Assembly: GCA_947459205.1 (NCBI GenBank)
Contig: CANHCR010000001.1
Location: forward strand, 74,870 to 138,869
Origin: Bacillales bacterium
Lineage (GTDB): Bacteria > Bacillota > Bacilli > Paenibacillales > CANHCR01
Reading direction: 5' to 3'
DNA: 64,000 nucleotides
Of this stretch, positions 6,060-44,508 are shown piece by piece. The position numbers were made by a program, and so were the translations under genes. How positions within the stretch are numbered: the stretch's first letter is position 1; every line of letters begins with the position of its first letter. The notes beneath the pieces are model-generated. The model was given only the letters and a program-made list of their open reading frames with translations, had not been told where the DNA came from and made no database searches.

Positions 6060-6092
6060 CCTCTCCGAGTTGGACTTGGAGAGGTTTTTTGT
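6060..6092 (+). terminator. Rho-independent terminator after sucD
   Basis: CCTCTCC (6060-6066) pairs with GGAGAGG (6078-6084), followed by TTTTTT. Confidence 0.8.
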
Positions 6093-6145
6093 TGTATAAT
6101 ACCTTTAATTCCAATTTATAGAATTTAATTGAAAAGGAGTTAAAG

Positions 6146-7285: not shown

Positions 7286-7310
7286 TCCATCGAAGGAGGA
7301 GTTTCACAAG

Positions 7311-9428: not shown

Positions 9429-9449
9429 AACAGGAATGGAGTTTTTGCG

Positions 9450-11653: not shown

Positions 11654-11691
11654 AGTGTATACGGGAAGCGAACATATTTATATGAGGAGGC

Positions 11692-12264
11692 ATGACGATG
11701 ATGGAGCATAACATGACAACGAACGGTTCGCCGTTTCACGCGACGACGATTTTTGCGATACGTCACAAAGGAAAAGGAGCGATGGCGGGCGATGGTCAGG
11801 TCACGTTTGCCAACTCGATGGTGATGAAGCAAACGGCAAAAAAAGTGCGGCGTCTCTATCGTGGACAGGTGGTCGCTGGTTTTGCTGGGGCAGTTGCCGA
11901 TGCGTTCACGCTGTTTGAAAAATTTGAAGCGAAACTTGAAGAATATCATGGTCAATTGCAACGCGCGGCGGTGGAACTTGCCAAGGATTGGCGACAAGAT
12001 AAAATGTTGCGGCGCCTCGAAGCGATGATGGTTGCGATGGATGGTGAAAATTTGTTGCTTATTTCGGGGACGGGTGAAATCATCGAACCAGACGATGGCA
12101 TTATTGCGATTGGGTCTGGAGGAAGTTTTGCCTTGGCGGCGGGACGAGCGCTGATTGCACATGCTGCTCATCTGTCAGCCGCAGAAATCGCCAGAGCATC
12201 GTTGGAAACCGCGGCTGACATTTGCGTATATACGAATCGAAATATAATCGTTGAGGAACTATGA
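11692..12264 (+). CDS. hslV: ATP-dependent protease subunit HslV (ClpQ/CodW); start ambiguous (ATG 11698, 11701 or 11713)
   Basis: [24 protein letters not shown] matches B. subtilis Cod[22 protein letters not shown] at 11685-11690 favours 11698/11701, and GGAG at 11703 favours 11713. Confidence 0.9.
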
Positions 12265-12280
12265 CGGAGGCAGGTAGAAG

Positions 12281-13570
12281 ATGGCAATCGACAAACACAA
12301 TTTGACACCGCGACAAATCGTAGCACAGTTAGATCAGTATATCGTCGGTCAAAAACGAGCCAAAAAAATGGTGGCAGTTGCGATGCGCAATCGGTTCCGT
12401 AGACAGGCGCTGTCCGAGCAATTGCGCGATGACGTGATTCCGAAAAACATTTTGATGATTGGACCGACTGGTGTCGGAAAAACGGAAATTGCTCGTCGTT
12501 TGGCGAAATTAGCCGATGCGCCGTTCGTCAAAGTTGAAGCTACCAAATTTACTGAGGTTGGTTATGTCGGGCGAGACGTCGAATCGATGGTTCGGGACTT
12601 GGTTGAAACGGCGATTCGGATGGTGCGCGAGGAAAGCATGGACAAAATGATGCACGTCGCACGCCAACGAGCGGAAGATCGCTTACAACAATTGCTGATT
12701 AAAGAAGGCAAAGTGCAGCCTGGTATGTCGGCGAGTGAGATAGAGGGACTAGAGATTGAAGTGGAGACGGAGGACGAGACCGTACCGCTATTTGACATGT
12801 TCGGTGGGCAGGGCAATGAGCAACTTGGTAATTTTCAAGAAATGCTTGGCAAATTCATGCCGAAGAAAAAGAAAAAGCGCCGTCTGAAAGTATCAGAGGC
12901 GCGAAAACTGTTGGAGCAGGAAGAAGCTGCGAAATTGATCGATATGGATGATGTGACGCAGCGAGCTTTGCGTCGTGCTGAACAAAACGGTATTATTTTT
13001 ATAGATGAAATCGACAAAGTAGCCGGTACGGGGAGAACCGCCGGACCTGATGTGTCGCGTGAAGGTGTGCAACGCGACATTTTGCCAATCGTTGAAGGTT
13101 GCACTGTCGTGACGAAACATGGGGCCATCAAGACTGATTACATTTTGTTTATTGCTGCGGGCGCATTTCACATATCCAAACCTTCTGATTTGATTCCAGA
13201 GTTGCAAGGGCGATTTCCTGTACGCGTGGAGCTCGACAGTTTGACGAAAGAAGACTTTATCGCGATTTTGACTGAGCCGCAAAATGCATTGACGAAGCAG
13301 TACGCTGCCTTGTTAGCTACTGAGGGAATGAATATTGCGTTTAGCGATGAGGCAATAGCTGAACTCGCAGAGATTGCTGCTGAAGTGAATCGCACAACGG
13401 AAAATATTGGCGCACGTCGTTTGCACACGATTTTGGAAAAACTGTTAGAAGATTTGTCGTTCGAAGCGCCAGACATCCAATTGGAGTATTTTCTCATTAC
13501 GCCTGAATATGTGCGTGAAAAGTTACAGTCGATTGCGCGTAACAAAGACTTGAGTCAGTATATTTTATAA
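12281..13570 (+). CDS. hslU: ATP-dependent protease ATPase subunit HslU (ClpY)
   Basis: [22 protein letters not shown], Walker [17 protein letters not shown]-terminal [10 protein letters not shown]. Confidence 0.95.
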
Positions 13571-13599
13571 ATTTTGTGATACAAGCAGGAGGACGGACA

Positions 13600-14379
13600 G
13601 TGAGCATATTGGCGAAAACAAGGCGTCTCAATAAATTGTTACAAAAGTCGGGCGGACAAGCGGTTAATTTCATGGACATGGCGGAGGTGCTGCGCGAGGC
13701 GATTCACGCTGATGTATACGTGGTCAGTCGCAAAGGGAAAATTCTCGGGTTTTCGATGGCATCGCCGTACGTCACACCAGGCATGAACATTATGGTAGTT
13801 GAAGAGCGGAGGTTTCCGGAAGGTTACAACGCAATGTTTTTGCAAATTGATGAAACGACATCCAATAATGATGTGCATAGTGCGTATAGCATTCTACTTT
13901 CGAAAATTCACGACTTTTTTAAACGCACACATACATTGGTTGTGCCGATAATCGGCGGCGGGCAACGGTGGGGCACATTGGTGCTGACGAGTGGTGAGCA
14001 GCCGTTTGACGAAACCGATTTGGTATTAGCCGAATATGGAGCGACCGTGGTCGGTATGGAAATTTTGCGTGTGCGCGCTGACGAAATCGAGCAAGAATCA
14101 CGCAATAAAGCGGTTGTTCAAGTTGCAGTGTCATCGCTATCTTTCAGTGAACAAGAAGCAGTTGGGCTTATTTTTGATGAACTGAATGGAACCGAAGGGT
14201 TGTTGGTCGCAAGTAAAATTGCGGATCGGGCTGATTTGACGCGCTCTGTTATCGTCAATGCGCTTCGCAAACTTGAGAGTGCCGGAGTAATCGAAACGCG
14301 CTCGCTTGGCATGAAGGGTACATATATCAAAATATTAAACGAACAGATCGTGACAGAGATTCGCCATTTTTCCAAATGA
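13600..14379 (+). CDS. codY: GTP/BCAA-sensing global regulator CodY
   Basis: Near-colinear with B. subtilis CodY (…ASKIADR..LTRSVIVNALRKLESAGVIE.RSLGMKGTYIK). AGGAGG lies 8 nt upstream of GTG 13600, giving 259 aa, the same length as B. subtilis CodY. Confidence 0.95.
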   Translation: MSILAKTRRLNKLLQKSGGQAVNFMDMAEVLREAIHADVYVVSRKGKILGFSMASPYVTPGMNIMVVEERRFPEGYNAMFLQIDETTSNNDVHSAYSILLSKIHDFFKRTHTLVVPIIGGGQRWGTLVLTSGEQPFDETDLVLAEYGATVVGMEILRVRADEIEQESRNKAVVQVAVSSLSFSEQEAVGLIFDELNGTEGLLVASKIADRADLTRSVIVNALRKLESAGVIETRSLGMKGTYIKILNEQIVTEIRHFSK

Positions 14380-24388: not shown

Positions 24389-25555
24389 ATGATTAGAGCG
24401 ATGTATTCAGGTATTTCCGGTATGAGAGGCTTTCAAACAAAGTTGGATGTAATCTCCAACAACGTAGCGAACGTGAACACGACTGGTTACAAATTGGCAC
24501 GTACGACGTTTCGTGATATTTTGAGCCAAACGGTCGCTGCTGGTACTGTTCCAAATCAAGATCAAGGCGGTATCAATGCGCGTCAAATCGGTTTGGGTGT
24601 TGGCGTTGCTTCGATTGATACAATTTTCTCGCAAGGTTCCGCACAAAGCACTGGTGTTAAGACAGATTTGATGATTGAGGGCGATGGATTCTTCGTCGTT
24701 TCTGAAACTGCTTCAGGTTCTGCGCTTGGTAATACGGCAAACAAAACGAGCGTCAGTGTGGCAGCTATGGATGAAACGAGTGTTACGTTAGATATTTCTG
24801 CACCAACGAATCCAACAACTCCAATAGCTCAATATCGCATCCTTCGTGCACAAGGTGACAATCCGCCACAACAGATTGGTTTAATCAATGTTGAAGATGA
24901 ACCTTATCAAGCAACAGGACTTACTGCCGGTGAAACATACACATTCAGTGTTGAGGCACTAGATGCAGATGGTAATGTCATTTCCGGATATCCGAGTGAG
25001 ACTTTAGAAGTCGTGATGGATCCGAACATTAATCAAATTGGCAAAAGCAGCAGCGACTCCATCGGTCTTTTGTTCACTCGTGCGGGTAATTTCTATTTTG
25101 ATAAAAACCGTAACCTCGTAACTGCTGACGGTTTGTTCGTTATGGATACTGAAGGCAAGAAAATTACGATTGATCCGACAGCGGTTGCATATAACATTGA
25201 CGAGCGCGGATTCATTGTCCAAGTCAATAACAAAGGGGAGCAAATTGAGAATTCACCACAAATCGGTATTGCTAAGTTTGCCAACCCACAAGGTCTAGAA
25301 AAAGTCGGTTCAACTCGCTTCAGATATACGCGTGTTGCGGATGCTGATGATCAACCGAAACCATACATTTTCAAACCTGATACATTCGAAAAAGGTACCG
25401 GTAAAATTCGTTCCGGATTCCTTGAAATGTCGAACGTTGACCTCGGTGTTGAGTTCTCTGAAATGATCGTTTCGCAACGTGGATTTCAAGCGAACACAAG
25501 AATCATCACCACATCAGATGAACTGTTGCAAGAAGTCGTTAACCTGAAACGATAA
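24389..25555 (+). CDS. flgE: Flagellar hook protein FlgE with an internal fn3-like insertion
   Basis: N-terminal rod/hook motif MYSGISGMRGFQTKLDVISNNVANVNTTGYK and C-terminal LEMSNVDLGVEFSEMIVSQRGFQANTRIITTSDELLQEVVNLKR. AGGAGG RBS. See the finding for aa 119-208. Confidence 0.9.
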   Translation: MIRAMYSGISGMRGFQTKLDVISNNVANVNTTGYKLARTTFRDILSQTVAAGTVPNQDQGGINARQIGLGVGVASIDTIFSQGSAQSTGVKTDLMIEGDGFFVVSETASGSALGNTANKTSVSVAAMDETSVTLDISAPTNPTTPIAQYRILRAQGDNPPQQIGLINVEDEPYQATGLTAGETYTFSVEALDADGNVISGYPSETLEVVMDPNINQIGKSSSDSIGLLFTRAGNFYFDKNRNLVTADGLFVMDTEGKKITIDPTAVAYNIDERGFIVQVNNKGEQIENSPQIGIAKFANPQGLEKVGSTRFRYTRVADADDQPKPYIFKPDTFEKGTGKIRSGFLEMSNVDLGVEFSEMIVSQRGFQANTRIITTSDELLQEVVNLKR

Positions 25556-26392: not shown

Positions 26393-27397
26393 TTGGTAGA
26401 CGTACTGTCACAAAGTGAGATTGATACGCTGTTAGCTGCGCTTTCGCGTGGCGAGGTAGACGGCGATCATTTGAAAAAGGATAACACTCAGCGACGTGTC
26501 AAAGTATATGATTTTAAACGTGCGGTTCGTTTCTCGAAAGATCATATCCGCAGTTTGACGAGAATTCACGAGACTTTTGCTAGATACTTGTCCACTTATT
26601 TTTCTGCGCAATTACGCACATTCGTGCAAATCAACGTCGTACAAGTTGAACAATTGCCATATGAAGAGTTTGTTCGCTCGATTCCGTCGATGACAATCTT
26701 GAACATCTTTCAAGCAGAACCTTTTGAAGGGCGTCTTGTTCTTGAAGTCAATCCGAACATTGCTTACACACTACTGGATCGCCTGTTTGGTGGGTTCGGT
26801 GGCTCGTTTGAAGAAGTCGATGATTTGACTGAGATTGAGCAAGTAGTCATCGAACGCGTGTTTGGAAATGCGCTTGATTCATTCCGTGAAGCGTGGAAGA
26901 CAGTTGTCGATTTGACACCAGAGCATGAGGCGCTTGAAACGAATCCGCAATTTATGCAAATCGTATCGCCGAATGAAACAATCGCGCTGATTTCGCTCAG
27001 TGTAAAAGTCGGTGAAGCGACGGGGATGATGAACTTGTGTATCCCTCATGTGACATTAGAGCCGTATATGCAAAAACTTTCCGTCAACAACTTGTTTTTT
27101 ACGTCTCGTAAAGAACGGAATGAAGAAGAAGAAAAGCAACTTCATAATCGGGTGCAGAAGACGAAAGTTGATCTCGTCGCTTTGCTTGGCGAAACATCAA
27201 TTACAGTCGAAGAACTTTTACAACTCTCAACTGGCGATTGTTTGAAACTAGACAATCACAAAGATGATATGATTCGACTTAAGGTCGGAGAAGATATTAA
27301 GTTTATCGGTAGCCCGGGAATTTCTCGCCATAAAATGGCTGTTCAAATCATTGAACACATTGAAGAGGGAGTGGAGCAAGATGATGAGCAACAGTAA
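26393..27397 (+). CDS. fliM: Flagellar motor switch protein FliM
   Basis: N-terminal CheY-binding peptide VLSQSEIDTLLAAL and the FliM middle and C-terminal SpoA domains. GAAAGGGGGG lies 7 nt upstream of TTG 26393. Confidence 0.92.
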   Translation: MVDVLSQSEIDTLLAALSRGEVDGDHLKKDNTQRRVKVYDFKRAVRFSKDHIRSLTRIHETFARYLSTYFSAQLRTFVQINVVQVEQLPYEEFVRSIPSMTILNIFQAEPFEGRLVLEVNPNIAYTLLDRLFGGFGGSFEEVDDLTEIEQVVIERVFGNALDSFREAWKTVVDLTPEHEALETNPQFMQIVSPNETIALISLSVKVGEATGMMNLCIPHVTLEPYMQKLSVNNLFFTSRKERNEEEEKQLHNRVQKTKVDLVALLGETSITVEELLQLSTGDCLKLDNHKDDMIRLKVGEDIKFIGSPGISRHKMAVQIIEHIEEGVEQDDEQQ

Positions 27398-28547
27398 AGA
27401 TTATTTATCACCAGATGAAATTGAAGCGTTGTTAAAAAACCAAGAGGAAGAAACGGCTCTTGATGAAGTACTTAACGTGAGTGACTATCTTACTTCCGAA
27501 GATCGTGATTCGCTTGCACAAGTAAATCATATTGCATATGGCGCAGCTGCTACTAGTTTGTCGTCATTGCTCGGCCAAAAGGTTGACATTACATCAACCG
27601 AAGTCGCAGTTGTCAAACGTGCTGCTTTGGGCCGTGATGCTGTTAATCCACAAATTGCTGTCAATGTACAGTATATGGAAGGCATTTATGGTGTGCAGTC
27701 CTTATTTTTGGCGACAGAAGATGCAAAAATTATCGCCGATTTGTTGAATGGCGGCAGCGGTGTTTCAGATGGTGAATCAACGCTGAATGAAGCACAAACA
27801 AGTGCTGTTCAAGAAGCGATGAATCAAATGATTGGATCTGCTTCGACTTCAATGAGCACATTGTTTAACGTGATGGTCAATAACGGTGCGCCAACTGTTG
27901 CTGCTATTGATTTCGCTAACCTGAGTGCAGAACAAATGATTCCACAAGATGATGTGTTAGTACAAGTCACGTTTGATTTGAAAATCGGTTCGATCAAGCA
28001 ATCGAAACTCATCCAATTGACAACCGTTCCATTTGTCAAAAATGTAGCCTCAGCTTTGAAAAATGCTGCAAATGCATCGACTGCTGCTGCATCTGCAAAT
28101 GAACCAGCAGAAGTACAACAAGTATTGAATCAAGCGGATGCTACACCTTCCTATTCTTATAATGCACCACAAGCTACGGGGTACTCTCAACCGCCGTCAC
28201 AAGCACCATCAAGAAATGTTAATGTGAGCGCGCAAACACCTGAATGGGCATCATTTAATTCCGGATCGCAATTAAATCCTTTTGAAGCGAATAATTTGAA
28301 TATGCTTATGCATATCCCGCTCAAATTATCTGTTGAATTAGGACGCACACAAAAATTGATTAAAGACATTTTGGACTTGTCACAAGGTTCGATTGTTGAA
28401 TTGGACAAACTTGCTGGCGAACCAGTGGACATTTTAGTGAACGACCAGTTGATTGCGAAAGGCGAAGTTGTTGTTATTGACGAAAACTTTGGTGTTCGTG
28501 TAACAGAGATTATTACTCAGTGGGATCGTTTGCAAAAACTTCGTTGA
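27381..28547 (+). CDS. fliY: Flagellar motor switch phosphatase FliY (CheC-like middle domain plus FliN-like C-terminus)
   Basis: N-terminal LSPDEIEALL peptide, CheC-like repeats, and C-terminal FliN/SpoA domain (IPLKLSVELGRTQKLIKDILDLSQGSIVELDKLAGEPVDILVNDQLIAKGEVVVIDENFGVRVTEI). Confidence 0.88.
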   Translation: MMSNSKDYLSPDEIEALLKNQEEETALDEVLNVSDYLTSEDRDSLAQVNHIAYGAAATSLSSLLGQKVDITSTEVAVVKRAALGRDAVNPQIAVNVQYMEGIYGVQSLFLATEDAKIIADLLNGGSGVSDGESTLNEAQTSAVQEAMNQMIGSASTSMSTLFNVMVNNGAPTVAAIDFANLSAEQMIPQDDVLVQVTFDLKIGSIKQSKLIQLTTVPFVKNVASALKNAANASTAAASANEPAEVQQVLNQADATPSYSYNAPQATGYSQPPSQAPSRNVNVSAQTPEWASFNSGSQLNPFEANNLNMLMHIPLKLSVELGRTQKLIKDILDLSQGSIVELDKLAGEPVDILVNDQLIAKGEVVVIDENFGVRVTEIITQWDRLQKLR

Positions 28548-28579
28548 TGAGTCGTTTGTATTTTTTGGGAGGATTATAA

Positions 28580-28942
28580 ATGGGCAATCGTATTCTCGTT
28601 GTTGATGATGCTGCTTTTATGCGCATGATGATCAAAGATATACTGGTTAAGGCCGGTTATGATGTTTGCGGCGAAGCGAATGACGGCATACAAGCGGTCG
28701 AGAAGTTTCGTGAACTTCGCCCTGACCTAATTACGATGAATATTACGATGCCTGAGATGGACGGAATTACTGCATTGCAGGAAATTCGAAAAATCGACGG
28801 TGGTGCGAAATTCATTATGTGCTCCGCGATGGGGCAACAACAAATGGTCATTAAGGCGATTAAATCCGGTGCAAAAGACTTTATTGTCAAACCGTTCCAA
28901 GCGGATCGCGTCTTAGAAGCGGTGAAAAAAATAATCGGGTAA
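28580..28942 (+). CDS. cheY: CheY-like single-domain response regulator with Asn at the phospho-acceptor position
   Basis: About 75% identical by eye to B. subtilis CheY (ILVVDDAAFMRMMIKDILVK...MPEMDGITAL...IMCSAMGQQ.MVI.AI..GAKDFIVKPFQADRVLEA). Codon 54 is AAT (28739-28741), where CheY proteins have GAT/GAC. Confidence 0.9.
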   Translation: MGNRILVVDDAAFMRMMIKDILVKAGYDVCGEANDGIQAVEKFRELRPDLITMNITMPEMDGITALQEIRKIDGGAKFIMCSAMGQQQMVIKAIKSGAKDFIVKPFQADRVLEAVKKIIG

Positions 28943-34674: not shown

Positions 34675-36059
34675 GAGTAAAACGTTATATCGTAGATACG
34701 ATGCCGGAAGCGATGAAAAAAATTCGCGAAGAACTAGGGAAAGACGCCGTTATTTTGAATCAGAAGGAAGTTCGTGTCGGCGGGTTCCTCGGCTTGTTCT
34801 CACAGAAGAAAATTGAAGTAGTGGCGGCTGTCGATCCGAGCATCCAGCAATCCAAACCGCGGCAACAGCAAGCGCCTGTAGCGACCACGCCGGTTCGGAC
34901 GCAAACCACCGCAATGACGCAATCGGCCGCTACAACATTGAATGTTGCAGGAGCAAATGCAGCATATGGCATCAATACAAATACACGAACAGAGGCAACC
35001 GCTCAAACGAATCCAGTGATTGCGACAACGGATGCAGGCAAACCTGCTTCCACTGCTACTGCGGCAGCGGTGGCCGTTGCTACCGAGCCAGATAAGCAAG
35101 GAACGCTTGTCGATGCAGTGAATGCGTCGGACAAATCGCAACCGAGCAAAGAAACAGTTGAAGAACCAAAACGTACAGATGAATCGGTGCTAAGTGAACT
35201 TCGTCAAATGAAGGAAATGATGCTGAAACTTTCGACAGCATCGCGCGAACAAAACCAAGACCATGAAAATATTCAGAAGATGATTGAACACCTCGAAAAT
35301 CAGGAGTTCGATTCGGTTCTCATCGAAGAAATCATCTTGCACGTGAAAAACCAATTGGAACAAAGCGGCATTGCTGACCCAGACGAAGAAACGGTGCGCA
35401 GTCTTGTGCGTGAACAATTGGAGAAAATCGTCTACAGTAATGGTGTCATGACAATCGCACCTGAAACGAAAATTGTCCATTTTGTCGGTCCGACTGGGGT
35501 CGGTAAAACGACGACGATTGCCAAACTTGCTGCGTTGCAAGTGCTTGAAAACAAACGCAAAGTAGGCTTCATTACAGCGGATACGTATCGGATTGCTGCA
35601 GTAGAACAGTTGCGCACCTATGCAAGCATCCTCAACGCGCCGATTGAAGTGGCGATGTCACCACAGGACCTGGCTCGCGCATACGAATCGATGAAAGATC
35701 TCGATATCATTTTCATGGACACGGCTGGACGAAATTTCCGCAATGAGATGTATGTTTCCGAGTTGAATACGATGTTGAATTCAAGTGAGCATTCGGAAAC
35801 GTATCTCGTGCTTAGTATGACGATGAAGTACAAGGATATGAAAGCGATTACCGAAAATTTCAGCCGGATTCGCATTGATCGACTGTTATTCTCTAAAATT
35901 GATGAATCCGCTTCATATGGTGCCATCGTGAATTTGATTCATCAGTTTTCCATTCCACTCTCTTATTTCACATTCGGACAACAAGTTCCTAATGACATCG
36001 AGGTTGTGAAAGAAGACCGCTTCGTCGGTCAGTTGATGGGGGAAGATACGAATGAATGA
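34671..36059 (+). CDS. flhF: Flagellar SRP-type GTPase FlhF (with an expanded low-complexity B-domain)
   Basis: G1 [17 protein letters not shown]3 DTAGR, G4-like SKIDE. ATGA overlap with flhA. Confidence 0.9.
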   Translation: MRVKRYIVDTMPEAMKKIREELGKDAVILNQKEVRVGGFLGLFSQKKIEVVAAVDPSIQQSKPRQQQAPVATTPVRTQTTAMTQSAATTLNVAGANAAYGINTNTRTEATAQTNPVIATTDAGKPASTATAAAVAVATEPDKQGTLVDAVNASDKSQPSKETVEEPKRTDESVLSELRQMKEMMLKLSTASREQNQDHENIQKMIEHLENQEFDSVLIEEIILHVKNQLEQSGIADPDEETVRSLVREQLEKIVYSNGVMTIAPETKIVHFVGPTGVGKTTTIAKLAALQVLENKRKVGFITADTYRIAAVEQLRTYASILNAPIEVAMSPQDLARAYESMKDLDIIFMDTAGRNFRNEMYVSELNTMLNSSEHSETYLVLSMTMKYKDMKAITENFSRIRIDRLLFSKIDESASYGAIVNLIHQFSIPLSYFTFGQQVPNDIEVVKEDRFVGQLMGEDTNE

Positions 36060-36942
36060 TCAGGCTCAAGAATTACGGCAAATGGTCAACAATGTCATTG
36101 CCAGCCAGGATCCGAATCGTAAGCAGACGAAAGTCATTACCGTTACGAGTGGCAAAGGTGGCGTAGGCAAGTCCAACTTCACGTTAAACTTCGCCTTGAT
36201 TTTACAAAGTTACGGGTATAAAGTACTGATTTTTGATGCTGATATCGGGTTTGCAAACATCGATGTATTGATGGGGATGACGCCACAGTATAATTTGCAC
36301 CATATGCTCAAACGAGAGAAGACGATTTGGGAAATCATCAATGTCGGTCATAATAACTTGCAGTTTATTGGTGGTGGCTCAGGATTCCAAGACTTGATTC
36401 GGTTATCCGAGAGTGAAGTCGAATATTTCGTATCACAAGTAAATCAATTGAACGGACATGTCGATTTCATCATCTTCGATACGGGTGCCGGATTATCCAA
36501 AGAAACATTGCGCTTTATCATCGCAGCCAACGAAACGATTGTGCTCACTACGCCCGAACCGACTTCTGTTATGGATGCGTATTCGATTATTAAAATGGTG
36601 CGCGCGATGAACTATAAAATCAAGTTTCAGTTGGTCGTCAATCGGGTTGCTGATGCGAAAGAAGGCAAGCAGACTGCAGACAAAATCAGCATGGTTTGTC
36701 AACGGTTTTTAAATATCGAATTGCCTGTTCTTGGATATGTACCTGACGATCTCAATGTCACGAAAGCGGTCAAAAAACAAGTCCCGTTTTCACTTGCTTT
36801 TCCGAACTCCGAAGCGACGCGTGGCGTCTCAAGCATTGTGCAGCGTTTTGTTGCCGGTCAAACGGCGTCGCCTGAACCTGAAACCGAAAACAGTGGTATC
36901 AAGGGCTTCTTAGGAAAGATGATGAAACTTTTGAAACAGTAA
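36052..36942 (+). CDS. flhG: MinD/ParA-type ATPase FlhG (YlxH)
   Basis: Deviant Walker A TSGKGGVGKSNFTLNFA. Overlaps the flhF stop. The C-terminal basic/amphipathic tail GFLGKMMKLLKQ resembles a membrane-targeting sequence. Confidence 0.88.
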   Translation: MNDQAQELRQMVNNVIASQDPNRKQTKVITVTSGKGGVGKSNFTLNFALILQSYGYKVLIFDADIGFANIDVLMGMTPQYNLHHMLKREKTIWEIINVGHNNLQFIGGGSGFQDLIRLSESEVEYFVSQVNQLNGHVDFIIFDTGAGLSKETLRFIIAANETIVLTTPEPTSVMDAYSIIKMVRAMNYKIKFQLVVNRVADAKEGKQTADKISMVCQRFLNIELPVLGYVPDDLNVTKAVKKQVPFSLAFPNSEATRGVSSIVQRFVAGQTASPEPETENSGIKGFLGKMMKLLKQ

Positions 36943-36973: not shown

Positions 36974-37405
36974 ATGTACGGAACAATCGGCTGGAACTTC
37001 ATCATATCGGCGGTATCGGCGGTGCTGGCTTTTTTCGTATCACTTTCCAGCAACCTGTTTTTGACTGCGCTTATTCAATCGCTATATGTGTTCGGGATTA
37101 TGTTCCTTGTTGCGTTCATATTCCGTTTTCTGGTCGGATTACTCATCGCAATTAATTTGCCCGTAGATACGAATTTGGAGTTCACTTCGACGAATCAAAT
37201 TTTAGATGCAGGTGGCAACGTTAACATCCAAACTCCAAATAATGATGATTTCTTGCAAGATATTTTGCGCCAAAATTACATGAACAACGGTGAGGAGCAG
37301 CAACAAGACTTTTCACCGCTGAATCCTACGCGATTGTCGAGTGCGCCTGAGACTCAGGCAGATCCATTGGTGGAAGCTGTGCGTTCTTCACTTCGCCAAA
37401 ACTAG
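36974..37405 (+). CDS. Hypothetical small membrane protein (2 predicted TMs plus an acidic Q/N-rich tail)
   Basis: 143-aa ORF with GGGAG RBS. It occupies the slot where B. subtilis-type operons carry cheB-cheA-cheW-cheC-cheD. I recognise no family. Confidence 0.5.
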   Translation: MYGTIGWNFIISAVSAVLAFFVSLSSNLFLTALIQSLYVFGIMFLVAFIFRFLVGLLIAINLPVDTNLEFTSTNQILDAGGNVNIQTPNNDDFLQDILRQNYMNNGEEQQQDFSPLNPTRLSSAPETQADPLVEAVRSSLRQN

Positions 37406-37418: not shown

Positions 37419-38201
37419 ATGGTGGAAGGTAAACCTGCTGAGTTAACTTATGTTGATTTGTGGGTAAAATTCAAAGAAGAAGGTTCAGATGAAGCGCGCA
37501 AGCAGTTGATTGTTAACTACATGAAAATTGTTGACGTCGTCGTCAATCGGCTGGCGATTGGCTTGCCGAAGAACATATCTAGAGATGATTTGGCTGGATA
37601 TGGTATAATGGGCTTAATTGACGCGGTCAATCGCTTCGATCACAAACGTGGTTGGCAGTTTGAAACGTATGCTTCTTGGCGAATTCGCGGTGCTATCATC
37701 GACAGTCTCCGCCAAAGCGATTGGGTTCCACGCTCGATCCGCGAGAAGGCAAAACGAATTGAAGATGCCTACACTTCGCTCGAACAGAAATATATGCGTG
37801 ACGTCAAGGATGAAGAAATCTCAACGTTTTTGAATGTTTCGATTGATGAATTTCACAAAATGTTACAAGAAACCGCGATATCTACCGTGATCTCGTTTGA
37901 TGAACCAATCAAAGACGAAGAAACTGATTCGAGACTCTCTCTGCTGATTGACATCAATGCGGTCAATCCAGAGAGCAAAGTGAACGAAGTATTTCTGAAG
38001 GAGATTCTCGCGAAAACATTAGAAAAACTCACGGTCAACGAAAGACAGGTCGTCACTTTGTTTTATTTTGAGGAACTATCGTTGACTGAAATCGCAGATG
38101 TGATGAATCTTTCTCCTTCTCGTATTTCACAACTTCACTCGAAGGCTATCCTAAGATTAAGAGGTTCATTAGCAAGATTTAAATCGCAATTGTTTGTTTA
38201 A
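37419..38201 (+). CDS. sigD: Flagellar sigma factor SigD (FliA/WhiG family)
   Basis: Region 2 (YASWRIRGAIIDSLR), region 3, and region 4 HTH (LSLTEIADVMNLSPSRISQLHSKAILRLR). AGGAGG RBS. Confidence 0.92.
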   Translation: MVEGKPAELTYVDLWVKFKEEGSDEARKQLIVNYMKIVDVVVNRLAIGLPKNISRDDLAGYGIMGLIDAVNRFDHKRGWQFETYASWRIRGAIIDSLRQSDWVPRSIREKAKRIEDAYTSLEQKYMRDVKDEEISTFLNVSIDEFHKMLQETAISTVISFDEPIKDEETDSRLSLLIDINAVNPESKVNEVFLKEILAKTLEKLTVNERQVVTLFYFEELSLTEIADVMNLSPSRISQLHSKAILRLRGSLARFKSQLFV

Positions 38202-38218: not shown

Positions 38219-38542
38219 ATGAATATGAAACCGATTGATTTGCAAATGGCGATTCCACGTGCTACCGAAGTAGGCAGAGTTCAGCAACAAATGCAGCATA
38301 AACCTCAACAAGACCAAGCTATGTTACAGCAAACGAATTCGAAAGACAGTGATCTGGCAGCACAGAAGCCGACAGAAGTAGACAAGTCGGACCAGGATGC
38401 TATCAGCAAAGATGAAAAAAAAGAAAACCAGAACCAAGAGCAGGGGCAAAAGAAGCGTGCTCGTAAGAATAAAGCTTACGCAAAAAAGCCGGATGATGCA
38501 GAGCATCCTTACAAAGGTAAAAATCTTGATTTGTCACTCTAA
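38219..38542 (+). CDS. Hypothetical K/Q/D/E-rich small protein
   Basis: 107-aa ORF with GGAGG RBS, tightly packed after sigD. The low-complexity, highly charged composition gives no recognisable family. Confidence 0.45.
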   Translation: MNMKPIDLQMAIPRATEVGRVQQQMQHKPQQDQAMLQQTNSKDSDLAAQKPTEVDKSDQDAISKDEKKENQNQEQGQKKRARKNKAYAKKPDDAEHPYKGKNLDLSL

Positions 38543-38566
38543 TATCGAAGTAAAGGAGTACGTCTT

Positions 38567-39100
38567 GTGAACTTATGGATTTATTTAATCATCGCTGGGA
38601 TTATCGCGGTCATTTGGTCATTTGTACTGCCTTCCCAACCTAACAAGTCGAAACAAGGCACTTCACTTGATGATTTAGAAGAATCATTGAATAGTTTCAC
38701 TTCTGGTTTAGAGGAAGATAATAAGGATCTTAATGCAAGATTACAATCGATGAAAATCGATCATGAGATTCAAAAAAGCGAATTGTTGATGCGCATCGAC
38801 TATCTCGAGCGTAAGAGCAATCAAATCGAAGAGGATACAAAGCGCGTGGCCAGAACCGTTGAAGATGAGATCATTCATCAAGCGCGTACTGGCGGACGTC
38901 CGGCGGATGGACCGCTTGGAACTGCACCAGAACCAGAGCAAGAAGAGCAGGCTCCGCAAACGATGGTCGAGCGTTATCCTGAGTTGTTCGAACTGTACAA
39001 AGAAGGCAAATCGATCGAGTTTATCGCCAAAAAAGTCGGCAAAAATAAAGGTGAAGTCATTTTGATTATTGACTTGGCGAAGCAAGGAGAAGAAATTTAA
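38567..39100 (+). CDS. SwrB-like protein (N-terminal TM, coiled coil, C-terminal HTH-like motif)
   Basis: The architecture and the C-terminal ELFELYKEGKSIEFIAKKVGKNKGEVILIIDLAKQG resemble my recollection of the B. subtilis SwrB C-terminus (..ELYEQGYSASQIAQKMKSGKTEIELFLKF..). Sits downstream of sigD. AAAGGAG RBS. Confidence 0.5.
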   Translation: MNLWIYLIIAGIIAVIWSFVLPSQPNKSKQGTSLDDLEESLNSFTSGLEEDNKDLNARLQSMKIDHEIQKSELLMRIDYLERKSNQIEEDTKRVARTVEDEIIHQARTGGRPADGPLGTAPEPEQEEQAPQTMVERYPELFELYKEGKSIEFIAKKVGKNKGEVILIIDLAKQGEEI

Positions 39101-39642
39101 TGGCAAAGAAATCATTTTTACTTGGTCTCGGACTCGGTTTGTTATTGGCAACATTAACGTTACAACTTGATTTTTGGAAAGTGCAGACGGACCAGCAGAT
39201 CAATGCTGGCGAGATGACGGTCGAAAAACTGCGTGAAGAAGCGAAAAAATTCGATTACGAATTGAAGACGAAAAATGAGATTCAATTGGAAATCGAAAAA
39301 GCAATCGAGCAATACAAAAACAAACAAAATTCCGGACAACCGCAGTCAAACAGTCAGACCAAACCTACGCAGCAGACTTCCGGGAATGCTGCGAATGTCA
39401 CAACCACACTGAATGGTACGAAGAAAACGCCGACGAGCATCAAAATTACCATTCAAAAAGGTTGGGATGCAACGCAAGTTGCGAACTACTTACATAATTC
39501 GAATGTCGTTAAAGATAAGAACGCGTTGCTGAAAGCGCTTGTCGGCATCTCGAAAACGCGGCAAATTGCTGCCCGTTCGTTTTTCTTAGAGCCGAACTCA
39601 GATCCGAAAGAAGTCGCACAAAAGATCACTACTGGTAAATAA
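39100..39642 (+). CDS. Hypothetical membrane-anchored protein with a C-terminal YceG/MltG-N-terminal-like (LysM-like) segment
   Basis: N-terminal TM (FLLGLGLGLLLATLTL). The C-terminal IKITIQKGWDATQVANYLHNSNVVKDKNALLKAL...FFLEPNSDPKEVAQKI follows the pattern of the MltG N-terminal domain. Last gene before the operon terminator. Confidence 0.45.
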   Translation: MAKKSFLLGLGLGLLLATLTLQLDFWKVQTDQQINAGEMTVEKLREEAKKFDYELKTKNEIQLEIEKAIEQYKNKQNSGQPQSNSQTKPTQQTSGNAANVTTTLNGTKKTPTSIKITIQKGWDATQVANYLHNSNVVKDKNALLKALVGISKTRQIAARSFFLEPNSDPKEVAQKITTGK

Positions 39643-39646
39643 CAAA

Positions 39647-39681
39647 CCTCTGTTCCCGAGCGGAATACAGAGGTTTTTTTA
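39647..39681 (+). terminator. Rho-independent terminator ending the flagellar operon
   Basis: CCTCTGTTCC-CGAGC-GGAATACAGAGG hairpin followed by TTTTTTT (39674-39680). Confidence 0.85.
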
Positions 39682-39755
39682 TGGGATATGAGATGATTGT
39701 ATTTGAATGCACGATACGATAACATAATGATAGTATTAGGCGAGGGAGGACAAGC

Positions 39756-40100
39756 ATGTCAGAACCAACGTTGCACGATTTGCAAAAACAAGTGGATGAT
39801 TACATTTCACAATTCAAGGAAGGCTATTTTCAACCGTTGTCGATGTTGGCGCGGATGACCGAAGAGGTCGGTGAATTGGCGCGTGAAGTCAATCATCGGT
39901 TCGGTGAAAAACCGAAAAAGACAGACGAAGCGGATAACTCGATCGATATGGAATTGGGCGACATTTTGTTCATCATCATTTGTTTCGCCAATTCGCTAAA
40001 CATCGATCTCAATACTGCGTTTCAACAAGTGATGCACAAATTCAACACGCGCGATGCCAATCGCTGGACAAGAATCGAAAAGGAGACACATCATGAGTAA
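39756..40100 (+). CDS. ypjD: MazG-like nucleotide pyrophosphohydrolase (YpjD-like)
   Basis: MTEEVGELAREVNHRFGEKPKK...ELGDILFIIICFANSLNIDL (EExxE...D motifs). Position upstream of dapB, as in B. subtilis. Confidence 0.8.
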   Translation: MSEPTLHDLQKQVDDYISQFKEGYFQPLSMLARMTEEVGELAREVNHRFGEKPKKTDEADNSIDMELGDILFIIICFANSLNIDLNTAFQQVMHKFNTRDANRWTRIEKETHHE

Positions 40101-40896
40101 AACATTGCGAGTCGCCGTCACTGGCGCAAAAGGAAAAATGGGACAGGAAGTCGTCAAAATGGTATTGCAGGAAGCCGATTTTCAACTGGTCGTCGCGATT
40201 GACCCAAGTAGTGCGGGCGTTGATGCGGGTGTGCTGGTCGGCAAAGAGCCATGCGGCGTCATCGTGCAAGCGGACTTGGATCAAGCTTTGCGCGAATCAG
40301 CGGCAGATGTACTCGTTGATTTCACCATTCCGCAAGTGGTAATGGACAACGTCCGCACCGCCATTCGCCACGGCGTGCGCCCAGTCATCGGTACGACTGG
40401 CATGTCGCCAGCAGACATTGAGGAAATCGACAACTTGCTGAAAGAAAAAGCAATCGGCGGTTTGATTGCCCCTAACTTTTCCATCGGCGCTATCTTAATG
40501 ATGAAATTCGCTGCGCAAGTGGCCAAATATATGCCACATGTTGAGATTATCGAATATCATGGCGATCAAAAACTTGATGCGCCTTCCGGCACATCAATCA
40601 AAACGGCGGAATTAATCGCCGCCAATCGCCAGGAACTGCGCCAAGGCAATCCGCACGAGCACGAGACGATAGATGGTGCACGCGGCGGCTATTATAACGG
40701 CTTCCGTATCCACAGCGTACGTTTGCCAGGCGTGTTTGCTCAGCAAGAAGTTGTATTCGGCGGGTACGGGCAGACACTCAAAATTCGCCACGATTCCTAC
40801 GAGCGCGCGGGCTATATGCCGGGCGTTGCAGTGGCGGTGCGCAAGGTGATGGACTGCACCGGCGTCGTCTATGGGTTTGAGCATTTTATCGACTAA
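40093..40896 (+). CDS. dapB: 4-hydroxy-tetrahydrodipicolinate reductase
   Basis: LRVAVTGAKGKMGQEV NAD(P) motif and EIIEYHGDQKLDAPSGT active-site motif. AGGAG lies 7 nt upstream of ATG 40093, which overlaps the ypjD stop by 8 nt. Confidence 0.93.
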   Translation: MSKTLRVAVTGAKGKMGQEVVKMVLQEADFQLVVAIDPSSAGVDAGVLVGKEPCGVIVQADLDQALRESAADVLVDFTIPQVVMDNVRTAIRHGVRPVIGTTGMSPADIEEIDNLLKEKAIGGLIAPNFSIGAILMMKFAAQVAKYMPHVEIIEYHGDQKLDAPSGTSIKTAELIAANRQELRQGNPHEHETIDGARGGYYNGFRIHSVRLPGVFAQQEVVFGGYGQTLKIRHDSYERAGYMPGVAVAVRKVMDCTGVVYGFEHFID

Positions 40897-40922
40897 TCGA
40901 TTTGTTAGCGGGGTGACAGGCA

Positions 40923-41342
40923 ATGAACATCGCTTTAATTGCACACGACCGTAAAAAAGAGCAACTTGTCCATTTTGTCATCGCATACGAGGCCGTGTTT
41001 CTCGGGCATCAACTGTTTGCGACCGGCACCACAGGTCTGCGGATAATGGAACATACGAAACTGCAAGTCGAGCGCTTCATGTCGGGCCCGCTCGGCGGGG
41101 ACCAGCAGATTGGCGCTATGGTCGCACGCAACGAGATGGACTTGGTCATTTTCTTTCGCGATCCGCTGATGGCGCAGCCGCACGAGCCGGATATTATCGC
41201 ATTGCTTCGGCTATGTGATGTCCAGGGTGTGCCGGTAGCGACCAATTTGGCGACCGCGGAACTGCTGATTCGTTCCTTGCAGCGCGGCGACATGTCTTGG
41301 CGTGAGCTGACGACTAAATACAAGCCGGGCGACCGTATGTAA
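40923..41342 (+). CDS. mgsA: Methylglyoxal synthase
   Basis: [16 protein letters not shown]...LFATGTTG...[11 protein letters not shown]...FFRDPL...HEPDI are the canonical MgsA motifs. Confidence 0.93.
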
Positions 41343-41354
41343 GGAGGGACAGGC

Positions 41355-42053
41355 ATGAGTCAACTGGATTTACTCGTTTTTGCGGCCCATCCTGACGATG
41401 CGGAAATCGGCATGGGTGCGACGATTGCTAAACATCTCACAGCAGGCCTGCGCGTCGGCATATGTGACTTGACCGAGGCGGAGTTGTCTTCGAACGGCAC
41501 ACCGGCGCTACGCCGCGCTGAGGCTGTTGCCGCTAGTGAAATTTTGGGTTTGACGTTGCGCATCAATCTTGCATTGCCCGACCGTGGTTTGCGCTGTGAT
41601 CGGAAGCAACTGGATCAAATCGCTACGGTCATTCGTGAAACGCGTCCACGGCTCGTATTTGCGCCATATTGGTTCGATCGCCACCCTGACCATGTGATGT
41701 GTAGTCAAATGGTGGAGGAAGCTGTTTTTAACGCCAAATTGCGTCGTTATCCGCTTGCTGGTGAGGCGCATCAAGTCGAACAAGTCTATTACTATTTCAT
41801 TCATGAGCTACCGCAAGCTGACGTCGTCATGGATGTAAGTGCGGAGCATGAGTCCAAGATGCTGGCGCTGGCGGCGTATCGTTCGCAATTTTTGCATATA
41901 GATGAATTGGATATGGTAGTAACGCCGTTGAACCAAGGCTATTTGGAGCAAGTCGTTGAGCGCGATCGATTGCTCGGACGCCGTTATGGTATGAAGTTTG
42001 CCGAGGGATTCGCGAGTAAGACGGCACAGCGGCGTACGCTCTTTTTGGATTGA
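41355..42053 (+). CDS. bshB1: Bacillithiol biosynthesis deacetylase BshB1 (LmbE/PIG-L family)
   Basis: LLVFAAHPDDAEIGMGATIAKH zinc-site motif. Synteny mgsA-bshB1-bshA. Confidence 0.85.
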   Translation: MSQLDLLVFAAHPDDAEIGMGATIAKHLTAGLRVGICDLTEAELSSNGTPALRRAEAVAASEILGLTLRINLALPDRGLRCDRKQLDQIATVIRETRPRLVFAPYWFDRHPDHVMCSQMVEEAVFNAKLRRYPLAGEAHQVEQVYYYFIHELPQADVVMDVSAEHESKMLALAAYRSQFLHIDELDMVVTPLNQGYLEQVVERDRLLGRRYGMKFAEGFASKTAQRRTLFLD

Positions 42054-42070
42054 CCATTTGAGGTGATGAG

Positions 42071-43207
42071 ATGCTGAAAATCGGAATTACGTGCTACCCG
42101 ACATTGGGCGGTTCGGGCGTAGTCGCCACAGAACTAGGGAAATTGTTGGCCGAGCGCGGTCATCAAGTGCATTTCATAACACACGGGATGCCGTTTCGAC
42201 TCGGCAAATATCAAAAAAACATTTTTTATCATGAAGTCGAAGTGAACGACTATTATGTGTTCAAATATCCGCCGTTTAATTTGGCGTTAGCAAGCAAATT
42301 GGCGCAAGTGGCGAAGATTCAGCAACTGGACATTTTGCATGTTCATTATGCGTTTCCGCATGCGGTGAGCGCTTATCTCGCCAAGCAAATCGCGGCTGAC
42401 ACTCGCTTGAAAGTGGTGACAACGTTACATGGCACCGACATTACCGTACTCGGACAAGATCCGACGCTGATTGACATTATCCGATTCGCTATCAATGAGA
42501 GCGACATGGTAACGGCTGTCTCACAAAGTTTAATCGACGACACGCGCCGTACATTGCAAATCGAGCGTTCGATCGAGCTCGCACACAATTTTGTCGATGA
42601 ACGCATCTACTTCCCGCGAGAGGTTAGCGCTTTGCGTGCCGAATTCGCGCAGCCGCATGAAAAAGTGCTGATGCACATTTCCAACTTCCGCCCCGTCAAA
42701 CGCGTGTCCGATGTTGTCGATCTGTTCACGCTTGTTCGCCGTCAAATGCCGGCCAAACTGCTATTTGTCGGCGAAGGTCCAGAACTGCCGAAAATTATGG
42801 CGCGTGTGCGTGAAGCGGGACTTGCTGAGTGTGTCTATTTTCTCGGCAAACAGGACGAAGTGGCGGAACTCATTTCGATTGCCGATTTGTTGTTATTGCC
42901 GTCGGAAAAAGAAAGTTTCGGCTTGGCCGCGCTGGAGGCGATGGCTTGCGGCGTGCCGGTACTCGCATCGAACACAGGCGGAATTCCAGAGTTGATTGAG
43001 CATGAAGTGAGCGGCTTAATGGCACCAGTCGGCGAAATTTCGACGATGGCGCGCCTCGCACTCTCGTTGCTGAGCGATGAACAGCGACTCGCCGACATGC
43101 GCCAAGCGGCGATTGCACGTGCGCGAGCGCGATTCAGTGCTGACGCGATTGTCCGTCGTTACGAACAACTATATGAACAAGTGTTAAAAATAGAGGATCA
43201 ATCATGA
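42071..43207 (+). CDS. bshA: N-acetyl-alpha-D-glucosaminyl L-malate synthase BshA (GT4)
   Basis: MLKIGITCYPTLGGSGVVATELGKLLAERGHQVHFI and the E-x7-E region SEKESFGLAALEAMACGVP. Synteny supports the call. Confidence 0.88.
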   Translation: MLKIGITCYPTLGGSGVVATELGKLLAERGHQVHFITHGMPFRLGKYQKNIFYHEVEVNDYYVFKYPPFNLALASKLAQVAKIQQLDILHVHYAFPHAVSAYLAKQIAADTRLKVVTTLHGTDITVLGQDPTLIDIIRFAINESDMVTAVSQSLIDDTRRTLQIERSIELAHNFVDERIYFPREVSALRAEFAQPHEKVLMHISNFRPVKRVSDVVDLFTLVRRQMPAKLLFVGEGPELPKIMARVREAGLAECVYFLGKQDEVAELISIADLLLLPSEKESFGLAALEAMACGVPVLASNTGGIPELIEHEVSGLMAPVGEISTMARLALSLLSDEQRLADMRQAAIARARARFSADAIVRRYEQLYEQVLKIEDQS

Positions 43208-44508
43208 GCGATCATTCGATAACAAACGATAAATGGGTGGCAGCGCGCTCGATTTTACAAACGTTACTAAACGCCGGTCATGAGGCGTATTTTGTCGGCG
43301 GTTACGTCCGCGATTGTTTGTTAGGCGAGCCAGTCAAAGACATTGATATCGCAACGTCTGCCTTACCTGACGAGGTGTTGGCGTTGTTTCCACATACGGT
43401 CGCGACCGGTCTGCAACATGGCACAGTCAGTATCATCATCGCCAAAGTCGCCTATGAAGTGACGACTTTTCGAGCGGAGTCAGTGTACGAGCAGGCGCGC
43501 CGTCCGAAAGAGGTGCGTTTCATTCGCGACCTGCGTGCCGACCTCGAGCGTCGTGATTTTACGATCAACGCGATGGCACTCGACAGCGAAGAACGGCTGA
43601 TCGATCCGTTCGCTGGGCAAGCGGACTTACAACTGCGATTGTTGCGTGCGGTCGGCGACGCAAACGAACGGTTTGCCGAAGATGCTTTACGCATGCTGCG
43701 CTGCTTGCGCTTTGCCGCCCAGTACGAGTTGCAGATCGAATCGCATACATGGCAGGCACTGATCGCCAATCGCAGCAACCTTGAACACATTTCCATCGAA
43801 CGTGTGCGCATGGAACTGGACAAAATGTTCGAAGGCCGCCACCCGATGCGTGCACTCGCACTGCTTTGCGAGAGCGGGCTTTTTCATCATTTTCGCGGCT
43901 TGACGGATTGGGACAAGTTGTTGACTGCATGGATGCAACTGGCGCCGAATGAGCGCCCATTTGCTCTCGACCCACAATTATTGCAAAACGCGGCCGGTCG
44001 CTGGGCACATCTTTTCTTTACGATTGCTGCCACACCTGAGCAAACGGTCGACATTTGCCGCAAACTGACCCATTCCAATCAAAAAACGGCGGATATTGTC
44101 GATCAATTGCGGTTTTTTCACTCGCTAGCAGCATGTGCCACATCTGACAATTTGGAGCGCATCTGGAAAACGACGACCGTTGAATATAGCAAGCAGACGG
44201 CGCTCGCGGTGCTCGAGTGGCTGCACAATGATTGGCAGGGCGCACGTCTATGTCCGGTGTCGGAACAGTTGGTCGCGCATGGTGAGCGATGGTTGGCGCA
44301 GATGAGCGTCTTTCATACGCGCGATTTGGCGGTGAACGGCAACGACTTGATGAAACATTTACAGCGTAAAAACGGTCCGTGGCTACGAGCGCTACTCACC
44401 TCGCTACTGCGAGCGGCAGCAAACGCGGATGTTGCCAACGAAGAGGCTGATCTGCTGGAATTGGCTGAGCGACTTGTTGAAGCAGAGGATGGCGGTGCGC
44501 AGACATGA
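43204..44508 (+). CDS. cca: CCA-adding tRNA nucleotidyltransferase
   Basis: YFVGGYVRDCLLGEPVKDIDIATSA, RRDFTINAMA and ERF.EDALRMLR motifs. ATGA overlap with bshA. Confidence 0.9.
   Translation: MSDHSITNDKWVAARSILQTLLNAGHEAYFVGGYVRDCLLGEPVKDIDIATSALPDEVLALFPHTVATGLQHGTVSIIIAKVAYEVTTFRAESVYEQARRPKEVRFIRDLRADLERRDFTINAMALDSEERLIDPFAGQADLQLRLLRAVGDANERFAEDALRMLRCLRFAAQYELQIESHTWQALIANRSNLEHISIERVRMELDKMFEGRHPMRALALLCESGLFHHFRGLTDWDKLLTAWMQLAPNERPFALDPQLLQNAAGRWAHLFFTIAATPEQTVDICRKLTHSNQKTADIVDQLRFFHSLAACATSDNLERIWKTTTVEYSKQTALAVLEWLHNDWQGARLCPVSEQLVAHGERWLAQMSVFHTRDLAVNGNDLMKHLQRKNGPWLRALLTSLLRAAANADVANEEADLLELAERLVEAEDGGAQT

Follow-up and report, generated by a model that had tools for sequence, protein, structure and literature searches.

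Asparagine in place of the phospho-acceptor aspartate is a conserved feature of the flagellar-operon CheY in a freshwater lineage related to Paenibacillus

The cheY locus and its product

The DNA considered here is a 64-kb stretch of contig CANHCR010000001.1 from a Bacillales bacterium, referred to throughout as the window, and it carries a flagellar operon whose cheY gene encodes asparagine at the position of the phospho-acceptor aspartate. The genes for the switch proteins FliM and FliY lie just upstream of cheY, and the positions of all features mentioned below are collected in Table 1. The cheY open reading frame (ORF) specifies a protein reading MGNRILVVDDAAFMRMM...LITMNITMPEMDG...CSAMG...FIVKPF..., and an apparent ribosome-binding site precedes its start codon. 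The receiver family PF00072 is on record for an identical protein (P0001). The alignment of residues 1-118 to CheY of Thermotoga maritima (1TMY; E = 1.7e-52, phmmer against PDB sequences) is gapless and places Asn54 opposite D54 of 1TMY, within TMDITMPEM; this D54 is the established phosphorylation site.

Among the features that define a receiver, the acidic pair that binds Mg2+ is present (D9/D10, in VVDDAAF), and S82 (CSAMG), K104 (VKPF) and the switch aromatic residue F101 are all kept; what is missing is the acceptor aspartate at the end of beta-3, where asparagine is found. The original prediction, made from this DNA, had reported an AAT codon at position 54 in a CheY that otherwise retains the VVDDAAF, CSAMG and VKPF motifs, and the sequence and the gapless alignment bear out that description throughout. 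Asparagine is unable to form an acyl phosphate. Because Asp54 is replaced by Asn, phosphotransfer from CheA to an aspartate at this position is impossible in the protein as encoded.

Distribution of Asn54 among relatives

Asparagine 54 is found in five distinct CheY sequences: that of the window (P0001), two others in its 90% cluster (P0121 and P0122), and a second pair (P0007 and P0008). The two cluster mates are 97-98% identical to the window CheY and keep Asn54 while differing at 2-4 other positions. The second pair is 82-83% identical to the window CheY and encodes Asn54 with AAC. The next-closest group (P0002-P0006, 86-88% identical to the window CheY) has Asp54, and the acceptor position is Asp in 117 and Asn in 5 of the closest 122 CheY sequences, a distribution far from chance. 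Asp also occupies this position in all 163 other related loci taken from genomes and metagenomes, and the codon in Asp-bearing relatives is GAT or GAC. Scans of genome and metagenome contigs for CheY returned closest matches that are 80% identical and all Asp-bearing, with no further contexts for Asn54; these matches served as outgroups. Residues D9, D10, S82, F101, K104 and F106 are invariant in 122 of 122 sequences, and in an alignment of 23 sequences the only substitution specific to all of the Asn54 proteins is D54N itself.

Since AAT differs from GAT by a single G-to-A change, the original prediction cautioned that sequencing error or a recent mutation had to be excluded first. Contigs from three independent sequencing runs (SRR6754089, ERR3761228 and ERR3761229) are 100% identical to the window, AAT codon included, over 10,276, 4,746 and 4,657 bases, respectively, and the exact protein is found on at least seven contigs in a public protein collection. 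The four further Asn54 sequences come from other lake metagenomes. Sequencing error is rejected on these grounds, and we regard an assembly artefact or a strain-specific laboratory mutation as next to impossible. A recent loss-of-function mutation is likewise rejected, given the variation between AAT and AAC codons and a ratio of non-synonymous to synonymous substitution rates (dN/dS) of about 0.014 at saturated synonymous divergence (see below). D54N is an old, conserved trait of this lineage, neither an error nor a recent lesion.

The second pair has also altered several near-invariant residues (T52 to I, M60 to L or S, M80 to I, and A93 to S), and these extra changes sit close in sequence to conserved active-site residues. 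They may represent secondary adaptation, or mild relaxation after the loss of phosphorylation.

Whether Asn54 arose once or twice was considered from several angles. CheY distances taken alone pair the window weakly with P0007. By FliP and FliQ identity, the window, P0008 and the Asp-bearing P0003 form a trichotomy. Shared-derived sites split 4:5:5 for the quartet of window, P0008 and P0003 with eight outgroups (CheY, FliO, FliP and FliQ). Both Asn54 groups share a rare operon architecture, described below, and a single origin is thus favoured by parsimony. Two origins, if true, would amount to convergence and would make the stronger case.

Among cultured bacteria the closest are species of Paenibacillus and Cohnella, whose CheY and FlhA are about 80% and about 72% identical, respectively, to those of the window. 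The samples carrying window-lineage contigs are freshwater lakes. Asn54 and Asp-bearing sister lineages co-occur in JGI 3300059473, a Lake Mendota time-series co-assembly (PMC11374980), and sequencing runs of other projects also contain the window strain itself, among them ERR3761228, a run that a study of Swedish lakes cites (PMC10244341). Its occurrence across projects and lakes therefore indicates a widespread freshwater group, with no cultured representative among the matches.

Selection on cheY

The two cheY genes of the second Asn54 pair, on L084 (P0007) and L168 (P0008), are separated by 56.5 synonymous changes but only 8.5 non-synonymous ones. The proportion of synonymous differences (pS) is 0.71, the estimated synonymous rate (dS) is about 2.2 and the non-synonymous rate (dN) is 0.031, giving a dN/dS of about 0.014; the difference between the two site classes has a Fisher p of about 3e-37. 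This ratio is on par with the 0.019 found between two Asp-bearing Paenibacillus cheY genes. Between the window and P0008, dN is 0.098 for CheY, lower than the 0.113 of FliP and the 0.122 of FliQ. In a relative-rate test against seven Paenibacillus-type CheY proteins, the window group has 79.5-81.2% identity and its Asp-bearing sisters 76.8-81.4%, while P0007 and P0008 are slightly more diverged (74-75%). Purifying selection thus constrains the Asn54 CheY as strongly as FliP and FliQ, and the substitution has been retained over evolutionary time; it is no sporadic lesion.

These rates bear directly on the suggestion that CheY in a non-chemotactic lineage has simply lost its function and is a dead protein, not yet decayed, on its way to becoming a pseudogene. 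An acceptor residue that cannot form an acyl phosphate would fit such a history, as would an operon without che genes and a FliY whose phosphatase sites are decaying (both described below). A dN/dS of 0.014-0.06 at saturated synonymous divergence does not, nor does a CheY dN that is no higher than that of FliP or FliQ, with no acceleration relative to the Asp-bearing sisters. The cheY ORF and its ribosome-binding site are intact, and the CheC-like domain of FliY in the same genomes shows what real relaxation looks like. We consider pseudogenisation a very poor explanation of this gene.

Translational coupling was also considered as a cause of cheY retention and was rejected. Coupling preserves a reading frame and not an amino-acid sequence, so by itself it is insufficient; no constraint on non-synonymous sites would be expected from it.

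The switch proteins FliM and FliY

The original prediction noted CheY-docking peptides at the N-termini of both FliM (LSQSEIDTLL) and FliY (LSPDEIEALL), and both are indeed encoded in the window. The window, P0255 of an Asn54 lineage and most Asp-bearing sisters share an identical N-terminal FliM peptide (VLSQSEIDTLLAAL), which carries conservative changes in P0260, a FliM of 76% identity. The FliY peptide, KDYLSxxEIxALL, is invariant in all ten aligned FliY proteins, four of them from Asn54 lineages and the most diverged included. On the CheY side, we take the FliM-binding alpha4-beta5-alpha5 face to correspond approximately to G85, Q87, A98, F101, V103, K104, A114 and K117, by offset from E. 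coli CheY, and all eight residues are invariant in the 23-sequence alignment, which includes the five Asn54 proteins. The retained docking peptides and mapped face, along with constraint like that on FliP and FliQ, suggest only indirectly that CheY would visit FliM and FliY without being phosphorylated.

FliY has a second role to consider, as the switch-bound phosphatase of phosphorylated CheY (CheY-P) in Bacillus-type systems (PMC340952). This phosphatase has two active sites of the CheC type, each following the consensus D/S-x3-E-x2-N-x21/22-P, whose E and N are the catalytic residues of CheC, CheX and FliY (PMC12887009). Both sites are intact in the FliY proteins of Asp lineages (three sisters and three Paenibacillus). 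In the window FliY (P0123) and in P0124, also of an Asn54 lineage, site 1 reads DSLAQVNH...ITST, with E replaced by Q, N by H and P by T, while site 2 is intact; the window protein thus departs from the two-active-site pattern, having D-x3-Q-x2-H...T at the first site. The FliY encoded beside the P0121 cheY (P0125) has E to Q, N to H and P to A in site 1 and N to Q in site 2, and the FliY beside the P0007 cheY (P0129) has D to A in site 1 and S to T, E to D and N to A in site 2. The substitutions differ from one sublineage to the next, which is the signature of constraint relaxing once all of them had lost the substrate.

The rest of the protein gives a similar picture. Identity of the CheC-like domain to Paenibacillus is 30-45% in Asn54 lineages and 53-56% in Asp-bearing sisters, while the FliN-like C-terminal domain is equally conserved in the two (71-73% and 71-76%, respectively). 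Between the window genome and the P0121 genome, CheY is 98% and FliM 96% identical, and FliY only 77%. For the window FliY, Pfam recognises a single CheC stretch (36 bits), against two (82 bits) for the FliY of L087, the locus of the Asp-bearing sister P0003, and no Pfam CheC stretch is on record for P0125 or P0129. By these domain comparisons, FliY relaxation in the Asn54 lineages appears to be confined to the CheC-like domain, and the decay of the phosphatase sites argues that no CheY-P would reach the switch in these organisms. This co-decay also provides an internal evolutionary control, separating functions that have been lost from those that have been kept.

Automated annotation does not register the difference. 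The NCBIfam FliY score is 375 bits for the window protein and 438-444 bits for the Asp-bearing sisters, and FliY proteins from Asn54 lineages also pass the 218-bit cut-off for "phosphatase FliY". Annotation pipelines would still call these proteins "phosphatase FliY" and "chemotaxis protein CheY", and one source already labels a CheY identical to that of the window in the latter way.

Operon content

From flgB through flhG, every gene for flagellar structure or export is intact, and the gene order is syntenic with that of Paenibacillus and Bacillus. The Bacillus-type cheB-cheA-cheW-cheC-cheD cluster between flhG and sigD is absent in the window, where only an ORF for a 143-residue protein occupies the interval. 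A tblastn search of the 64 kb with the N-terminal parts of Paenibacillus/Bacillus CheA and with CheB matched only the CheY receiver, and the CheB methylesterase domain gave no match there. Pfam scans of the window ORFs at 11-10763 and 34671-62649 identified no chemotaxis protein, and no second receiver domain is present in the window. The ORFs at 10763-14379 were assigned by position, from their match to the B. subtilis order, rather than by Pfam scan.

The second contig of the window group has the same order of flhG, 143-residue ORF and sigD. On the P0007 contig, flhG is likewise followed by an ORF for 143 residues, after which an uncharacterised ORF is truncated by the contig end. The Asp-bearing sister locus L087, by comparison, has flhG followed by cheB and a CheC-type gene, and cheB directly follows flhG in 87 of the 95 Asp-bearing loci with enough flanking sequence. 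The enzymes whose presence is meaningful only alongside CheY-P have thus either been lost from the Asn54 operon (cheB, cheC) or are losing their catalytic residues (FliY).

In L087 (11838-13542), the CheC-type gene overlaps the end of cheB, with no cheA-cheW between them, unlike the arrangement in Paenibacillus and Bacillus; the che cluster of the wider clade was therefore rearranged before D54N or independently of it. The protein encoded by the 143-residue ORF has two or three hydrophobic N-terminal segments and a low-complexity, acidic and Gln-rich tail, and matches no Pfam family.

The original prediction took the lack of che genes in the operon as a sign of altered chemotaxis control. The genes are indeed missing, but what can be concluded from this is weaker than was claimed, because the remaining 8 of the 95 Asp-bearing loci also lack cheB after flhG, and the operon alone is therefore no proof of pathway loss. 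The same eight loci lend some support to the suggestion that the Asn54 CheY is a non-signalling competitor or modulator, tuning gain or bias at the FliM, FliY or CheA docking sites of a working chemotaxis system. This would require that cheA, cheW and methyl-accepting chemotaxis protein (MCP) genes, along with an Asp-bearing CheY or a CheV, be encoded elsewhere in the genome. Any binding role, this one included, would be compatible with the strong purifying selection and with docking surfaces that are conserved. The absence of a second receiver gene from the window counts against it, as does the decay of the FliY phosphatase in all Asn54 sublineages, which argues against CheY-P at the switch. 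We consider such a competitor unlikely.

The FliY sites and the missing genes also have to be set against the possibility that the protein is a pro-CheY, in which active-site-assisted deamidation turns Asn54 into Asp, which then receives phosphate from a CheA encoded elsewhere. A passage of Maule et al. (PMC4395418), citing Wolanin et al. 2003 on CheY, states that a receiver with Asn at the acceptor position may undergo rapid reversion to Asp. In the Asn54 lineages, every other active-site residue that such chemistry and the subsequent phosphorylation would need is invariant, FliY site 2 is intact in the window, and the operon of the Asp-bearing sister is already without cheA and cheW (cheB is followed by cheC), so that a kinase could lie elsewhere. 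If CheY-P were formed in this way, however, the FliY residues should remain constrained, yet both sites are altered in P0125 and P0129 and site 1 is altered in the window, and both cheB and cheC are gone from the Asn54 operon. Asn has moreover been kept through a synonymous codon change, with no reversion by a single G/A transition over saturating divergence, and this long retention argues that Asn itself is favoured. The pro-CheY explanation seems to us improbable.

Table 1. Positions of the features discussed, in the window unless another contig is named
Feature	Contig	Position	Strand	Basis or remark
cheY, 120-residue single-domain receiver with Asn at the phospho-acceptor position	window	28580..28942	+	ORF and translation
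Codon 54 of cheY, AAT (Asn), replacing the phospho-acceptor Asp	window	28739..28741	+	sequence; alignment to 1TMY
Ribosome-binding site GGGAGG, 7 nt 5' of the cheY ATG	window	28567..28572	+	inspection only
fliM	window	26393..27397	+	Pfam FliM, FliMN_C
FliM N-terminal CheY-docking peptide	window	26405-26434	+	sequence
fliY	window	27381..28547	+	alignments; NCBIfam FliY
FliY N-terminal CheY-docking peptide	window	27405-27434	+	sequence
FliY phosphatase site 1 (dead)	window	27507-27599	+
FliY phosphatase site 2 (SAVQEAMN...GAP, intact)	window	27801-27893	+
flhG	window	36052..36942	+	Pfam ParA/MinD-type families; synteny with L001, L002, L036, L087
143-residue predicted membrane protein	window	36974..37405	+	no family match; 31 bases after flhG, in the slot before sigD
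sigD/fliA, flagellar sigma factor	window	37419..38201	+	Pfam Sigma70 r2, r3, r4; cluster mate annotated FliA
flgE, hook protein	window	24389-25555	+	388 residues
ORFs 3' of sigD, up to panBCD	window	38219-47875	+	listed in the text
492-residue ORF	window	11-1489	+	no Pfam family; overlaps the next ORF
107-residue FlhB-like ORF	window	1486-1809	+	Bac_export_2 model positions 262-335
xerC, hslV, hslU, codY	window	10763-14379		position and B. subtilis order
Two ORFs, 365 and 272 residues	window	61552-63503	-	no Pfam family at E <= 1e-4
cheY of P0007	L084	346-708
cheY of P0008	L168	431-793

Other features of the window

Downstream of sigD lie ORFs for a 107-residue protein, a DUF6115 protein and a YceG-like protein, followed by MazG, dapB, mgsA, a bshB-like gene (PIG-L), a bshA-like gene (GT4), cca, birA and panBCD. 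The second contig of the lineage has the same order after sigD as far as cca, where it ends. In B. subtilis the genes after the fla/che operon begin with rpsB-tsf-pyrH, and the window departs from that order in a break of synteny.

The hook protein FlgE is longer than the 263-276 residues of its Paenibacillus and Bacillus counterparts, and the alignment to them covers some 160 residues at its C-terminal end only. Its homologue on the P0121 contig has a weak fn3 match. These observations suggest that a domain has been inserted into FlgE in this clade.

Near the start of the window, the ORF that follows the 492-residue one encodes a protein matching only the C-terminal part of FlhB, and it resembles ylqH, the small FlhB-like gene upstream of sucCD in B. 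subtilis. Toward the other end, the 272-residue product of the pair of reverse-strand ORFs, as delimited here, has no exact match in the protein collection.

Proposed role of the Asn54 CheY

The reading that we favour, with a probability of roughly 0.6, is that this would be a natural aspartate-less CheY, fixed in its lineage and no longer a substrate of CheA, that works independently of phosphorylation at the FliM/FliY switch. Such a protein would receive no phosphate from CheA and would still bind the switch, contributing to motor bias or function either constitutively or under an input other than aspartate phosphorylation. Deletion of cheY in B. subtilis leaves cells that tumble exclusively, and CheY-P promotes runs (PMC340952). 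Because B. subtilis without CheY only tumbles, a motor without kinase input would have a reason to keep a CheY able to bind without phosphorylation, and the retained protein would plausibly keep a Bacillus-type motor swimming-competent. The organism could also show how such a motor, which tumbles in the absence of CheY-P, stays useful after kinase signalling ends. The original prediction spoke of "rewired or decaying" chemotaxis control. For CheY, which is conserved, "rewired" is the better fit; decay is seen instead in the FliY sites and in the loss of cheB and cheC from the operon.

Several points weigh against a phosphorylation-independent role. Unphosphorylated CheY normally binds FliM weakly, and in the 23-sequence alignment no known activating substitution of E. 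coli CheY accompanies Asn54. Pseudo-receivers usually lose their acidic pocket, whereas the pocket here (D9, D10, S82 and K104) is complete, and its retention could hint at residual chemistry; one of the two phosphatase sites also remains intact in the window FliY. The docking peptides are conserved, but over a modest divergence, which does not prove that CheY binds them. The Asp-bearing loci that have no cheB after flhG have kept Asp all the same, and the absence of cheA, cheW and MCP genes is a finding for the 64-kb window.

It is possible, though we hold this only tentatively, that matters have gone further and that the primary CheY of a motile lineage, once CheA-dependent signalling was lost, became indispensable to the flagellar switch as a component or regulator that needs no phosphorylation. 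In that role the Asn54 protein might act as a constitutive "run" factor for a Bacillus-type motor, or might respond to another input, for example acetylation or a small ligand in the retained acidic pocket, and selection would positively maintain Asn54 as a guard against spurious phosphorylation. Separate origins of Asn54 in the window group and the P0007/P0008 group, if there were two, would make this a convergent adaptive route.

Comparison with known systems

Apart from the acceptor, the window CheY, for which we favour phosphorylation-independent action at the switch, resembles the canonical Bacillus/Thermotoga-type protein closely. Its length is the same, its alignment to 1TMY is gapless and its identity to Bacillus CheY is 74%; its gene likewise lies between fliY and fliO/fliZ in the operon; and it shares the acidic pair, the S/T residue, the lysine and F101, with the same docking peptides on FliM and FliY. 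It differs in having Asn54 for Asp54, in an operon without cheB, cheA, cheW, cheC and cheD.

Characterised aspartate-less receivers and pseudo-receivers are mostly DNA-binding regulators or scaffolds, in which several active-site residues have diverged. The window CheY is unlike these: it is a motor-switch CheY that departs from the canonical form by one substitution, and the other members of the active-site quintet are intact. It is like them, for example RitR, in having a receiver fold without the acceptor aspartate and a presumed phosphorylation-independent function. RitR, with Asn53, is an example given in reviews of the class (PMC4395418, PMC12632262), whose definition we adopt here: a receiver fold recognised by sequence, with a residue other than Asp at the acceptor position, as the window CheY has. 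Asn is the second most common replacement of the acceptor, accounting for 16% of aspartate-less receivers (PMC4395418), and pseudo-receivers are common, with a mode of action that is largely unknown (PMC12632262). Within this recognised class, the window protein is, as judged from its sequence, a pseudo-receiver of the CheY orthologue itself. A limited literature search turned up no account of a natural primary CheY, encoded in a flagellar operon, in which the acceptor Asp is missing and which selection maintains.

The Cle proteins of Caulobacter are CheY-like c-di-GMP (cyclic di-GMP) effectors whose recruitment to the motor is independent of the potential phosphoryl-acceptor residue, and they bind c-di-GMP by an Arg-rich C-terminal extension (PMC5677366). 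The window CheY is likewise a CheY-like single-domain protein, but it ends ...AVKKIIG at residue 120, with no Arg-rich extension, and it is an orthologue of the primary CheY, whereas the Cle proteins are accessory paralogues.

The same replacement of the acceptor Asp by Asn has been made in the laboratory, in E. coli CheY D57N. That mutant is reportedly non-chemotactic, with residual phosphorylation on the neighbouring Ser56. Alternative phosphorylation of this kind was considered for the window CheY and rejected: residue 53 is Met in all of the sequences, so that, unlike in E. coli D57N, a Ser56-type escape is closed. Residue 52, which also bears on an alternative site, is Ile in P0007 and P0008. 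The variant described here further differs from D57N in being natural and selected. CheY is the best-understood receiver and the one whose output is easiest to measure, and because the Asn54 protein is near-canonical except at the acceptor, yet strongly selected, it would make a clean system in which to study an unphosphorylatable receiver at the motor.

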